A stretch of DNA of 64,000 bases from Callorhinchus milii (GCF_018977255.1 NW_024704742.1:70124001-70188000); one strand, 5' to 3'; positions 15,877 to 21,900 are shown, counted from the first letter of the stretch. Notes: generated by a model from the sequence alone, not told the origin. A program made the numbers and translations.

Positions 15877-15954
15877 CTAGTGCTTCGAAAGCACCATGTG
15901 TAGTGACGGTGCAGGTAATGTGTAGTAACTGTGTTGGGAGTGTCTCCCAGTGTC
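15877..15954 (-). CDS. Putative terminal exon 16 ([25 protein letters not shown])
   Basis: Long polypyrimidine tract plus tgcag, in phase, TAG at 15879-15877. No homology support. Confidence 0.45.
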   Translation of the reverse strand, partial: DTGRHSQHSYYTLPAPSLHMVLSKH

Positions 15955-18900
15955 CTGCATAGTGGTTGGGGGGAAAAAAAGAGTAAAAAAAAGAACGTCC
16001 TGTGTTCTGCTTGGAGAGTCCTGTGGGGAGATAGTGAAAGGTGCTCTGTAGTGCCCTGACCCTACCCTTGCTCACATCTCTCCCGTTCCGCACAGAGGTA
16101 GACTCGGATGCAGGGAAGAAGGCTTCTGAAAGGTTTCGGAAGGTAGGTTCCTTGCCTCGCACTCGTTGCTCCCTTTTTTTCTTGCAAAAGGAGGATGCTC
16201 CTCAAACACACACAGACTCAGTGGTCCTGACCCACTGGGGCTGATTTAGACATTACATCCCACCATCTTGGGTCTTGTCTTGTTCTCGAGCTCACTCTTG
16301 TGAAAGGCTATCAGCACTATCAGTCCAGCAGAAATCAACAGCAGCAGAAATCCCAACAACAACATGCCTAGTGAGCGAGGGAAGGACAGAAAATTAATAA
16401 TAATCCTTGCATTTGATATACGGGCTTATCACTTTCTTGAGACATCGAAAAGTGCTTCACAGAATATATTGTAAAGTGAATTAACTGTATTTTGTGGGTG
16501 AAATGCAGTAGCCGATTCTCACAAACAGTTGCAGAGTGAATGACCAGTTTTATCTGGGAGATTGTCGGCCAGGACACCTTCTCTTTTCAAATAACAACAT
16601 ATTCATCTGAATAGGCACAGATGGGACATCGGTTTAACATCTCATCTGAAGGACAGCATCTCAAGCAATGCAGCACACCTCCAACCCTGCATTGGAGTGT
16701 CAGCTGAGACTGTAGGGGTTCCAGGAATTGATATTTGACTTGAACTCACAACCTTTTGAGTTAGAAACGAGAGTGCTACCAACTGAGCCAGGGATTTGTA
16801 GAGTTTCCCCCGGTTACCTGCTGGCCAACAATCCTCCGGATAAAATCGATTATTTCACCTGCCGTTTGTTTGTGGGAATCTTGCCGGCCACAAAATGGCT
16901 GCCACGTTTACAAATACCAAGTCACTACACTTCACAGCATTAAGCCTTTTTTAACGTTGTTGGCTCTACATTGCTAGTATCATTAGAATTAATATGAGTT
17001 TTGGTAGCAGTATTACAACTTTTATTCAGAATTGTTCATGAGGGACAGTGTCTTAGCGCACTTATTATGTTATTGAGAGTATTATTACAAAGGGTGTAAT
17101 CATAATGAGTATGGTTAATGTGGGATTATTATGGATTGTGTTTATTTTGAGCATTATTAAAGTATTATCAGGATTATTTTTAATACTAATATTTTGAGTA
17201 TTATTGTTGTGAGTATTATTTTTGTGCTTATTATCGTCAGTATTATTATGAGTAATAAATCGTATTAATCCTTATATTTGACACTGTTATTACTACGAGT
17301 AATAAATAATAATAATCCTTACATTTGACATTGTTGTGTTATCATAATATTTTTGTGAGCAACTTTTTATACTCTAAGATTCAAATTGTCCACCGGGCAA
17401 CAACAAGAACAGCAACAATAACTTGCATTTATAAAGCGCCCCTCATGCAGAGTAGCATCCCTGAGCGCTTGACAGTGGTAGAGCGTGACGCCGAGCCAGG
17501 GGGAGGGGGAGATGACCATGGACACGATCGAAAAAAAAGGTCTTCAGCCACGAGCTGAAGATGGGGAAGGAGGAGGCAAGGTGGAGTGATAGAGGAAGAG
17601 TATTCCAGAGTTTCAGGGCGTAGTGGCTGAAAGCATAGTCACCAATGATGGAACAGAGGGATGAGGGACATGCAGGAGGCCAGAGCTAGTTGAGCAGAGT
17701 TAGCAGGGAGAAGATTGGGGAGCGAGCAGGTCATAAAAGAAAAGCGAATGAAGAGAATTGTAAATTATATTTACCAATTCTGTAGTTTAGGATTGAATCA
17801 TTTTCCAACGCTCTTCCCAAATACTAAAGAGAAGAAAACATGGCAGTCAGTTAGTCCGAGATCATCACTGCCCTAGGGTGAGGATTAGAATGCTAGTTTG
17901 TGGATTGAGGCTTTAAAGGGATGTGGAGAGAACAACAACAAATTGCAAAAGGCAGGGAAATGGGATGAAAAGATCTGTCCAGATCTATTAATATTAATTA
18001 CCTCTACCACTAATAATAATGATCCTTGCATTTGATGTAGCGCCTTATCACATCGTTGAGATGTCTCAAAGCCTTCACAGAATATATTGTAAAGTGATCC
18101 ACCAATCGACTAACAATTGGGTTCCTACTACTTACTGCTCGGTAAACAGAGGTATGTGGCATAAGGAAACTTGTCTAAGGTTTCAGACTGGGAATGGGAA
18201 TTGAACCCGGGTTCCGCTCACTTGCAAAGCGAGTGCTCTAACCAATGCTACAGGACTTCACAGGAATTACCATTTGTGCTAAACCTAATGGGACTTCACA
18301 AGACAATACAAATACAAATTTACAGTTATATACATTAGCGCCTTTCACAATAGGAGGACTTTGGACTCACTATCCAATTGTCTGGTTGATCCAATAAGCA
18401 GCTGATGTCCTTGTTCTTGTCAGTCAGAAACCTGTTCAGATGGTTTTTACTGGAGTCACTGAACATTGGGATCTCCCACAATCTGCAAGGAAAACAAAGG
18501 CAAAATATTCTCGTTATCACTGACTTCATTCAAGAGGTTGGCAAGAGGTTTGGGGGTCCCAAAGTGTTGAAGTAACTGCTGGAGTCTAACCAGCTAAACC
18601 TGCATAGCTTGCCATTGAGATCATTGTATGGCAAGCTTTCCCACTGCTTGTCCAGCTAGGACCACCCTACCTGTTAGGGCTTTGGCTTGCTGAGTGGGAT
18701 GACTCCCTGGCCCCAGTGACTTGTCTACCTTCCAAGTACTGCCGATGAGCCAGGCTGGCTGTGCTGTGCCCTGGAATACTATGGACCTGCCTGGTTCAGG
18801 AACCAGATTAGAGACCGTCACGGAGGGCTGATTCGATTCCAACCATCCGTTGCCAACCATGTCACTTTGGAGCATGTTCAGCTCCAAGGATACCCTGCCT

Positions 18901-21900
18901 ATATATAACTCTAACTGTATGTAACTCTATGCAACTCTAATGTAACTCTATGTAACTACATAAATAGTAACTACATGCCTACTCTATGGCTTGAGTATGA
19001 TCTGATCAGATCGCATTGAGGGTGCGTTGCTGGTCATTCTTACCTGCTGTATCTGGACATTAAGCAAGTGCCCTGGCCAGCTGGACAATGGGAGTGCTTA
19101 TCGTCATGAGGCATTCCCAGGTTGTGACCGATTTCATGCGTGACATAGTTGGCCACTTTCCTGCTACCGAGTTTCGTGTCCTGTAAACCAACAGGATTTA
19201 GTCAGTCCCCTGGCCTCACTGTACTCACTAATTGCCCAGAAATACAGTCAATCCGCTTTACAGTATATCTTGTGAAGCGCTTGACAATGTGATAAGGCTC
19301 CATATCAAATGCAAGCATTATTATTATTATTAATCTGTGTTCAAAGGTGTTCAAAATTATGAGTTGCTTTGATAGAGTGAATAGGAAGAAACTGTTTCGT
19401 CTGGTGGGTGGGTCGGTAACCAGAGGACACAAATTTAAGATAACTGGCAAAAGAACCAGAGGGGAGACGAGGAGACATTTTTTTTCTCAGAGTTGTTGTG
19501 GTCTGGAATGCACTGTCTGAAAGGGTGGTGGAAGTAGATTCGATAGTAGCTTTCAAAATGGAATTGGATATGAATTTAAAAAGGGCAAATTTGCCAGGCT
19601 ATGAGGTAAGAGCGGGGGAGTGGGACGAGTTGGATAGCTCCTTTAAAGAGCTGGCAAGAGGCACAATGGGCCGAATGGCCTCCTTCTGTGCTGTAAGATT
19701 CTATGAGTCTATAATCTCTTTGAGTTATAATAAATAACAAATAATCCTTGCCCTAGATATAGCGTCTGACTCTTGCCTCTGAGTCAGTATTTTGGGGAGT
19801 CAAATCCCACATTGGGATTTTGAGCTCACAGTCTAGCCTGATGTCCTAGTGCAGTATAGGAACTGGGAGCTTTGTATTGCCAGAGGTTCCGTCCTTCTGA
19901 TGAGATGTTAAACCGAGCTCTCCGTCTGTGCTCTGTGCAGACAGACGTTAAAGACCCCTTGGTGCTGATCGAAAAGTGAAAGGAGGTTCTCTCCCAGTGT
20001 CGCGAAGGTGTGATAAGGCACTATATCAAAATGCAAGGATTATTATTATTATTATTATTATTATTGTAAGTAAACTGGAGCCCCTGAGCGAAAGGGCTGG
20101 GTGGTAGGGTTTGAGGATGTCACAGTTTTAGGTTGGGCATTTCAAAGGTGAGAACAAGGATCTCAAGCAACTGTGAGTAAGTGCTCCATGACACTATCTT
20201 GCATGAATGGTGCTATATAAACGCAAGTCGTCATCGTTGTTGTTGTAATAATAATAATCTTTGCATTTGATATAGTGCCTTATCACTACGTTGGGACTTC
20301 TCAAAGTGCTTTACAGAATATACTGTAAAGTGCCAATTGCACATAACAGTGTTCCACAAGTGGAATCATAGAACCATAGAATTACACAGCATGGAAGGAG
20401 GCCATTCGGTCCATCGTGTCTGTGCCAGCTCTTTGAAAAGAGCTATCCAAATCAATCTCACTCCCCGCTCTCTCCCCATAGCCCTGCAAACTTGTCCTAC
20501 CCAAATAATTATCTACTAATAGTCATTGATTGAGTGACCAAACTATTTTTTTATTAACTTTTTTGGAGGGATTATTACCCACGGAAAAGTGATCTGCCAA
20601 TCGACTAACAACTGCGTTCCTACTTACTGCTAGGTAAACAGAGGCGTGCGCCATAACGTTTTGCCTTGCCCAGGAATTGAACCCGGATCCTCTCATTTGC
20701 AAGGCGAGTGCTCTAACCACGAAGATACAGTTTTGTAACAAATGTCAGGAGGCTGTACCTTCACCACTCCTCCGCTCATGTCCCCCGTACACATCTTTGC
20801 CAGGTAAGTCTCGCCGAGTGAGTATTCACTGAACGACACCCCACTGCAGGAAACAAACCACAAAAGCACTCAGTGTGTGCGGATACTCAGCACCTCCCCC
20901 TCTCGTCTCCCCCTTTCACTTCCGTCACTTTAAATAACATCTGAATTTTTAATTTAAAAATTTTAATCTAAAATTAGAGCTAGGCTTTTAGGGATGAAAT
21001 CACAAAGCATTTTTCACACAAAAGGTAGTGGGAATCTGGATCTCTCTCCCCCAAAAGGCTGTGATACTGGATCCATTCACATTTTCAAGACTGAGGTACA
21101 TAGATTGTTGTTAGGTCAGGGTATCAAGGGATACGGGGCAAAGGCGGGTAATTGGAGTTGAGGTACAGATCAGCCATGATCTTATAGAATGGTGGAACAG
21201 GCTCAGGTGGCTGAATGGCCTACTCTTGTTCTTATATATTTACTACCCCTTTAAACCACGCATTCACTCCCCACCCCTTCAAATTACACATCCCTACCTG
21301 CCTCTTTAAACCACATTTCCCCATCCCTTTAAAGCACATCCTTTCCCCCCCCCCCCTCACCCCCACAGGCACGACTGCCCTCCTCGCCGGTCTCCACAGC
21401 TCCACTACCCATAAACTACAACGGATTCAGAATCCTGCCACCCAGATTCTCACCCACACTGAACTCCATACCCCCATCACAACAGTCCTCTCCAGGCTCC
21501 ACTGGCTCCCTATTACAGAACGGATGGATTTCAAGATCCTCTCACTCGTCTACAAATCCTTTCACGTCCTGGCACCTCCCGAACCTTTCTGACCTGCGTT
21601 CACTCCACTCCACCACCCGCTGCCTCCACTTGGCCGGCCCTGGCCTCCTGCTTGCCCCTGATCCCCTCCAATCCACCATCGGCATCCATGCTGTCAGCCA
21701 TTACATCCTGAAGCTTTGGAACACTTTCCTCACAATCCCTCCGCCTTTCCCTCCGCTTCCTCTTTCAACTGGACCTTCCTCTTCGACCGTGCTTACAGTC
21801 ATCTCCTCTCTCTTCCCGGCTCAGCGTCAGGCCCCGAGACGCTGCCCTGCGTGAAGGGCGCTGTATAACTGCAAGTTGTTGTTGAGTTACCTGATGAGCT

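Follow-up and report, generated by a model that had tools for sequence, protein, structure and literature searches.

The window analysed here, a 64-kb stretch of genomic DNA from Callorhinchus milii, the elephant shark (G000:C1:70124001-70188000, in an assembly of 991 Mb), carries on its minus strand a gene of 14 exons (31535-16246) for a membrane-anchored metalloprotease of the ADAM type, in which no disintegrin or cysteine-rich (Cys-rich) domain separates the catalytic domain from the membrane. Its open reading frame (ORF) stays open over 443 amino acids (aa) and encodes a hydrophobic start, a reprolysin propeptide, a catalytic domain of ~210 residues, a stalk of ~20 residues, a transmembrane (TM) helix and an 18-residue tail. 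In our judgement, this gene is probably the elephant-shark orthologue of an old, single-copy, ADAM-derived vertebrate gene for a type-I membrane zymogen, which would be active near the bilayer. On balance, we also favour the view that the orthologues make up an unrecognised ancient ADAM subfamily, metalloprotease-only and membrane-anchored, which would have arisen before the split of cartilaginous and bony vertebrates and would be represented by a single gene that teleosts and amniotes seem to have lost; the members of the subfamily would have a latency mechanism of their own and a Met-turn that tolerates Leu.

Exons were located by tblastn with shark orthologues, by running a hidden Markov model (HMM) of the family over the ORF pieces of the window, and by a targeted look at the N-terminus. 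Every exon edge was inspected, and all 13 introns of the gene have GT..AG ends. The base composition of the full 64 kb contains no N, and the exact protein matches to the window are UniRef and RefSeq entries of C. milii. An initial annotation of this DNA had let its finding start at 19180, which is the first base of exon 11, and had given a phase-0 end at 18371, a 49-nt exon at 17823-17775 and a TM exon starting at 16367; edge inspection found these coordinates exact to the base. The exons, all on the minus strand, are as follows.

31490..31535, minus strand: exon 1, coding part; ATG at 31535-31533, a signal-peptide-like hydrophobic start plus 1 nt, then a GT donor; its phase fits exon 2 (predicted).
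28020..28135, minus strand: exon 2, start of the prodomain; AG/GT ends and phase are consistent (predicted).
27150..27226, minus strand: exon 3, prodomain; tblastn and family HMM, with the junction to exon 4 in a spliced contig.
26782..26860, minus strand: exon 4, prodomain; tblastn, family HMM, edge inspection and the contig junction with exon 3.
26122..26198, minus strand: exon 5, prodomain, bearing the two extra Cys of the family; tblastn (E 5e-9) and family HMM (E 6e-12).
25138..25270, minus strand: exon 6, end of the prodomain with a furin-type site, RFKR (residues 163-166); tblastn and family HMM.
24061..24114, minus strand: exon 7, start of the catalytic domain; tblastn and family HMM.
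23102..23173, minus strand: exon 8, catalytic; tblastn and family HMM.
21891..22063, minus strand: exon 9, catalytic; Reprolysin positions 31-99 (E 2e-11), tblastn and a contig.
20759..20843, minus strand: exon 10, catalytic; tblastn and family HMM.
19044..19180, minus strand: exon 11 (137 nt), zinc site and Met-turn CLM; Reprolysin positions 126-180, 100% identity to a UniRef protein.
18371..18482, minus strand: exon 12, last catalytic exon, ending in phase 0 with donor GTGAGT; tblastn, edge inspection and contig ends.
17775..17823, minus strand: exon 13, stalk, 49 nt (the last base belongs to a split codon), AG/GT ends and an N-D-S sequon; tblastn, and a fit to the 50-letter gap of a contig.
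16246..16367, minus strand: exon 14, TM helix, 18-residue tail and stop TAA at 16248-16246; hydropathy, fold model and unspliced contigs.

Two of these exons were placed by phase, splice signals and weak likeness to the N-termini of other cartilaginous fishes: exon 1 shows a weak likeness to shark N-termini (tblastn, E 0.81), and exon 2 is the top-scoring ORF against the N-termini of eight shark and ray orthologues.

The 3' end of the gene is supported by contigs assembled from presumed RNA reads. As contig depth is dominated by repeats and most of the listed joints are repeat artefacts, only aligned contig pieces were used. One contig (X1 record 1, 328 nt) joins 18371-18482 to 16264-16366 with exactly 50 letters between them, which matches base 16367 plus the 49-nt exon 13 (a match in length). 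This contig spans the two junctions that the initial annotation had proposed, 18371^17823 and 17775^16367, and the RefSeq model XP_007906153.1 (P0002, 270 aa, named 'snake venom metalloproteinase BpirMP-like') has an identical C-terminal chain of exons 12, 13 and 14. The end of the last exon had to be corrected: it had been thought to be spliced after HK, and it reads on instead for 16 residues to the TAA at 16248-16246. Two contigs are unspliced there, namely X3 record 17, which spans 16189-16368 through the GTGAGC at ~16296, and X1 record 1, which does likewise over 16264-16366. Further upstream, X4 record 28 joins 27149-27228 to 26792-26859 and thus contains the exon 3-4 junction, and X1 record 3 corresponds exactly to exon 9 (21891-22063), with foreign flanking letters.

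The product is an ADAM-type protease up to the end of its catalytic domain. The Pfam Reprolysin profile (PF01421) matches P0002 with an E-value of 3.6e-50 over positions 3-200 of 200, and exons 3-6 of the window match both the family HMM (E 5e-4 to 6e-12) and shark prodomains; in nine orthologues the propeptide is recognised by Pep_M12B (PF01562; E 4e-13 to 9.2e-10). The Callorhinchus prodomain contains the motifs YEIIVPEKL.., HCCYTG and CVCHGLSG before ending in RFKR. The zinc-binding motif HExxHxxGxxHD (H146, E147, H150, G153, H156, D157) is invariant in all 17 aligned family members. An AlphaFold model of P0002, built from a 50-row alignment, reaches a predicted local distance difference test score (pLDDT) of 91.2, and a Foldseek comparison of its catalytic part with P-I snake venom metalloproteinases and ADAM33 gives a TM-score of 0.94 with a root-mean-square deviation of ~1.5 A. 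In the same model, an unbroken helix (216-260) runs from the stalk through the TM segment, whose Kyte-Doolittle hydropathy peaks at 2.99 over residues 405-423 of the full product. The model of the full-length Mustelus orthologue is of moderate quality (pLDDT 64.2) and was used only for the order of secondary-structure elements. The catalytic domain has four Cys, and the single Cys that follows it is located in the cytoplasmic tail. The stalk is probably helical and glycosylated.

Next to the catalytic exons, no trace of the missing domains was found. Six-frame searches of the whole genome (E ≤ 1) returned 22 matches to Disintegrin (PF00200) and 24 to ADAM_CR (PF08516), none of them on C1 near 70.1 Mb; the closest such match on that contig is at 8.28 Mb. 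The same approach with Reprolysin detected 12 genomic places, 11 of which have Disintegrin alongside, accompanied by ADAM_CR in 10 of these 11 (for example, the place at C28:1.46 Mb has both, and the present locus neither). These 11 other places thus serve as a positive control for the search. Within the window, none of the ORF pieces is Cys-rich and disintegrin-like (EGF was not searched separately). These searches, in a window devoid of N, bear out the initial statement that no Cys-rich exon was found, as does the Pfam scan of the protein and locus, in which Reprolysin is found and Disintegrin and ADAM_CR are not. Among contigs and annotated proteins, no transcript or protein with disintegrin exons was found either.

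Most of the ~2 kb that separate exon 12 from exon 14 is interspersed repeat (20,424 first-look candidates), as had been noted initially. Three repeat blocks can be delimited in introns 12 and 13 (18261-18011, 17764-17399 and 16792-16389), with many genome copies at 77-89% identity, and two of the three appear by eye to be tRNA-derived. Exon 13 lies outside all three blocks.

The initial annotation had described an architecture that it did not recognise. This description stands in that we found no described family of this kind in the full texts searched, but the architecture is not peculiar to the elephant shark: it defines a conserved gnathostome family. When P0002 was used as query, 23 proteins of comparable length were matched, and only one longer protein, of 474 aa and without a disintegrin domain (the blank among longer proteins being weak evidence by itself). 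Members of 430-474 aa with the same architecture were detected in about 20 species, as follows.

Cartilaginous fishes: Mustelus, Carcharodon, Stegostoma, Heptranchias, Chiloscyllium, Scyliorhinus, Heterodontus, Hypanus and Pristis.
Non-teleost ray-finned fishes: Polyodon, Huso, Acipenser, Amia and Lepisosteus.
Amphibians: Xenopus laevis, X. tropicalis, Hyla, Ranitomeya, Pelobates, Rhinophrynus, Pseudophryne and Pleurodeles.

The orthologues of sharks and rays, where the initial annotation had suggested looking, thus have the same build, and the proposal of a type-I membrane protease with its catalytic domain ~20 residues from the TM helix agrees with the spliced contig, the RefSeq model and the orthologues of ~20 species. 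Its occurrence in cartilaginous as well as bony vertebrates places the origin of the gene before the two lineages separated. The search matches included no member from teleosts, amniotes, lungfish, coelacanth or lamprey, which suggests, but does not prove, that losses occurred.

We define the family (P0005-P0011, P0014-P0022, P0024, P0025, P0027-P0029, P0032, P0171, P0173 and P0174) by an architecture of propeptide, catalytic domain, stalk of 11-25 residues, TM helix and short tail, by membership in a single clade, and by motifs, namely HCCYTG and C-T-C in the prodomain, and C-[HYQ]-C-P and C-L-[LM] after the zinc site. The Callorhinchus protein has all of these traits except that it reads S-H-C-P, the first Cys of C-x-C having been lost. 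When the region following the catalytic domain was compared, 26 family proteins were found to have a stalk of 11-25 residues and then a TM helix (Kyte-Doolittle >2.1), three end differently and have no TM helix (P0012, P0013 and P0026), and five stop at or just beyond the catalytic domain (P0001, P0003, P0004, P0023 and P0031). None of the family tails enters the CGN..EECDCG start of a disintegrin domain, whereas truncated models of canonical ADAMs do. Similarly, Pfam recognises Reprolysin, but neither Disintegrin nor ADAM_CR, in all 12 family proteins scanned (P0002 and 11 others); of four canonical ADAMs scanned alongside, P0030, P0033 and P0035 have both of the latter domains and P0036 has Disintegrin only, as does a 410-aa lamprey fragment (P0037). 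Callorhinchus and the sharks have an alignable stalk and TM helix (A-L-x-N-D .. Y-[KR]-I-G .. AGL), which argues that the corresponding exons are old and not exonised repeats.

The separation from canonical ADAMs is also visible in an index-free search of 1.84 billion representatives, in which all matches above ~150 bits are 208-464 aa long, with one exception of 994 aa, and canonical ADAMs start at 132 bits. The exception, annotated as ADAM9 in the tortoise Gopherus (P0030, UniRef A0A452GVW0), was considered as a possible long family member and rejected, as it is an ADAM9-type gene with a duplicated catalytic domain; the two copies (residues 196-420 and 456-680) are 99.6-100% identical, and the duplication is most likely an assembly or annotation artefact. 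The orthologues themselves are already public, but automatic annotation has given them misleading names ('ADAM12-like', 'ADAM33 isoform X2', 'snake venom metalloproteinase ...-like'); these proteins are therefore not new, only unrecognised as a family.

The catalytic domain was used for a careful tree of 51 rows (LG+C20+F+G4). All 17 rows of the family fall into a single clade there, with support of 100/100, separate from every canonical ADAM and with a stem length of 0.88 changes per column. Within the family, Callorhinchus is placed with elasmobranchs (99/96), and its catalytic domain is 59% identical to that of Mustelus. This tree does not resolve the place of the family among ADAM8/9/12/15/19/28/33. 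A sister relation to the ADAM28-like clade appeared in a quick LG+G4 tree (Shimodaira-Hasegawa-like approximate likelihood-ratio test, SH-aLRT, 91) and was lost in the careful mixture-model tree. A search for stanniocalcin located one gene only, at C1:40.1 Mb and thus 30 Mb away, so that there is no sign of the stc1-adam28 neighbourhood; this lends no support to an origin at the adam28 locus, nor does it probe one.

Exon boundaries provide some information on how the domains went missing. In elephant-shark ADAM12 (L011:9469-9660, G000:C7), the counterpart of exon 11 begins at the same residue, and that of exon 12 extends further, into ..PEIKELHGGQKCGNGYVEEGE, where the disintegrin domain starts. 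The exon 12 donor of the short gene lies ~12 codons earlier than in ADAM12, which indicates that its origin was not a simple whole-exon loss.

Several observations weigh against reading the gene as one for an active membrane zymogen, and we consider them together with the alternatives that they favour. A first set concerns the transcripts. The read runs behind the contigs were labelled as RNA by guess only; their RNA nature is argued by the removal of introns in the contigs. No RNA contig was seen for the exon 1-2 and 2-3 junctions, and the signal peptide was judged by hydrophobicity and likeness to orthologues only. XP_007906153.1 itself has neither signal peptide nor prodomain. Its 'MIK' N-terminus is accounted for by an alternative start in intron 6, and the window encodes a signal peptide and prodomain upstream of it:

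24606..24614, minus strand: alternative start ATG ATT AAA followed by gt, in intron 6; the only M-I-K pattern match of the window.

Such a protein could not put its catalytic domain outside the cell, and we therefore take this model to be incomplete. In addition, one contig (X3 record 18, 204 nt, depth 9.4) joins 20759 straight to 18482, skipping exon 11 and with it the zinc site; as the loss of its 137 nt shifts the frame and leads to a stop, this version of the transcript is probably non-productive. The contigs listed contain neither the exon 10-11 nor the exon 11-12 junction, so that it is the RefSeq and Ensembl models that support keeping exon 11 in the transcript.

Another set of models bears on the form in which the protease is made. 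Three Ensembl/UniRef models (P0001, P0003 and P0004) end by reading into intron 12, which would yield a soluble form without the TM helix:

18335..18370, minus strand: read-through into intron 12, then a stop; used in these three models.

The main product might accordingly be a P-I type enzyme that is secreted in soluble form, made by such read-through or by cutting of the stalk, with the TM form as a minor species or precursor. ADAM12 and ADAM9 are known for soluble splice forms. ADAM28, according to the relevant parts of two studies, makes one as well (PMC3055250, PMC7245079). We nevertheless regard this alternative as unlikely. Conservation of the exons for stalk and TM helix reaches from chimaera to amphibians (26 proteins with a TM helix against three with other ends), and a single contig was seen to extend from exon 12 in the 3' direction, which is spliced to exons 13 and 14. 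Moreover, Val is the last residue (window 16251-16249) in 17 of the 26 family proteins, among them those of chimaera, frogs and bowfin; this conserved residue, which may serve export or PDZ binding, argues for selection on the tail.

The catalytic domain and the prodomain raise a different question, namely whether the protein is a dead or very weak 'pseudoprotease', acting as a membrane scaffold or decoy as ADAM7, 11, 22 and 23 do. The Met-turn residue is Leu in 23 of 25 family rows (C-L-L, or C-I-L in Amia), whereas the canonical form is C-[IV]-M. No prodomain-bearing family row has a Cys at the place of the cysteine switch (xCGV), where canonical ADAM rows mostly have one, mostly followed by Gly. 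The family prodomain has instead two extra Cys (HCCYTG and C-T-C-Q-G). With no switch Cys, latency, and perhaps activity, may differ from those of ordinary ADAMs. Finally, both partners of one (the third) catalytic disulfide are replaced in Callorhinchus (S-H-C-P and F-S-D-S-S). Against this, the zinc motif, including Glu and Asp, has remained invariant in 17 of 17 members over >400 million years, and inactive ADAMs characteristically lose that motif. Callorhinchus keeps the Met (C-L-M, shared within the family by Scyliorhinus torazame only), Leu also occurs in a few canonical ADAMs (P0058, P0068 and P0093), and the two-disulfide pattern of Callorhinchus is that of adamalysin II, an active enzyme and its best PDB match. 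We thus find an inactive protein quite improbable.

That the locus is an artefact or relic, i.e. a truncated ADAM duplicate, a pseudogene or an assembly from which the disintegrin exons have dropped out, with a stalk and TM helix arisen by chance or from transposons, could be suspected from its repeat-filled introns, the 5'-incomplete RefSeq model and the frame-shifting skip of exon 11, but the absence of N, the open ORF, the canonical splice sites, the contig spliced over the junctions, the position of exon 13 outside repeats, the alignment of stalk and TM helix with sharks and the independent prediction of the same build in ~20 species leave this reading largely refuted and its probability close to nil.

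The preferred reading, that of an active, membrane-anchored zymogen, can be compared with four known kinds of protease. Canonical membrane ADAMs (ADAM8/9/12/15/19/28/33, MEROPS M12B) have the same signal peptide, Pep_M12B propeptide, Reprolysin domain with HExxHxxGxxHD, furin-type site, type-I TM anchor and cytoplasmic tail, with catalytic domains 26-35% identical. The family differs from them by the absence of disintegrin, Cys-rich and EGF domains and of the canonical cysteine switch, by the two extra Cys of its prodomain, by a Met-turn that usually has Leu, and by a very short tail. P-I snake venom metalloproteinases (such as adamalysin II, BaP1 and leucurolysin-a) share its make-up of propeptide and catalytic domain and are the best PDB matches by both sequence and fold. 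However, they are secreted toxins with no TM helix, whereas the present gene has one in both its spliced transcript and its RefSeq model; the features of P-I enzymes fit only the intron read-through models of the present gene, which moreover falls in its own clade. According to the relevant part of a study of their origin, P-I enzymes arose recently from ADAM28 in snakes via intragenic deletions (PMC7245079). If so, this recent snake ADAM28 origin makes their likeness to the present gene in domain loss a case of convergence.

ADAMDEC1, a member of the mammalian ADAM28 cluster with the zinc site HExxHxxxxxD, is likewise an ADAM-derived protease that has lost ancillary domains. As characterised in part of an ADAM survey, it is soluble, keeps a partial disintegrin domain, carries Asp where the third His would bind zinc, and occurs in mammals only (PMC3055250). 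The present gene, by contrast, has the third His and a TM helix, and no remnant of a disintegrin domain. Finally, membrane-type matrix metalloproteinases (MMPs) such as MT1-MMP resemble the family in action, not in membership: they are furin-activated metzincins with a type-I TM helix and a short tail, but they belong to another family (M10) and have a hemopexin domain between catalytic domain and stalk. In MT1-MMP, a C-terminal Val is required for surface delivery.

No published description of a disintegrin-less membrane ADAM was found in the full-text literature (a search that did not cover subscription journals and supplements). For example, a survey of Xenopus ADAMs presents ADAMDEC1 as a soluble truncated form and, in the portion accessible to us, does not list such a gene (PMC3055250). 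Similarly, the family is not described in the corresponding portions of a paper on vertebrate Adam evolution that includes the elephant shark (PMC4550289) and of the paper relating adam28 to venom metalloproteinases (PMC7245079).

By analogy with ADAMs and membrane-type MMPs, the protein would enter the endoplasmic reticulum, and on its way through the secretory pathway a proprotein convertase would cut off its prodomain at RFKR. Once displayed on the cell surface, the enzyme would have its active site no more than a few nanometres from the bilayer, where it may cleave pericellular substrates or, in their juxtamembrane parts, membrane proteins next to it. As it has no disintegrin, Cys-rich or EGF exosites, it would operate without the module which positions and gates substrates in other ADAMs, and its choice of substrates may be set by the catalytic cleft and by co-localisation in the membrane. 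Secretion, furin processing, surface location and proteolytic activity are thus all predictions drawn from better-known relatives.

The remainder of the window contains no second host gene that we could recognise, but fragments of long interspersed nuclear elements (LINEs) only. ORFs of non-long-terminal-repeat (non-LTR) retrotransposons, all on the minus strand, were observed at 462-3288 (endonuclease and reverse transcriptase), 29487-30119 and 51563-53164. The reverse-transcriptase fragment at 29487-30119 sits in intron 1 of the gene, and that at 51563-53164 is another.

To our knowledge, all textbook membrane ADAMs have disintegrin and Cys-rich domains between protease and membrane, which are held to position substrates and gate the active site, and the known truncated relatives (P-I venom enzymes and ADAMDEC1) are secreted. 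The conserved gene described here shows that a membrane reprolysin can last for >400 million years without these modules. It also corrects the annotation of orthologues that have been misnamed and of an elephant-shark RefSeq model that is missing its signal peptide and prodomain. If the subfamily is what we believe it to be, it would constitute a natural experiment on the need for the disintegrin/Cys-rich module in ectodomain shedding, and its members would provide a natural minimal sheddase for testing the role of these domains. As the gene is present in Xenopus and Pleurodeles, its function can be tested in tractable animals.

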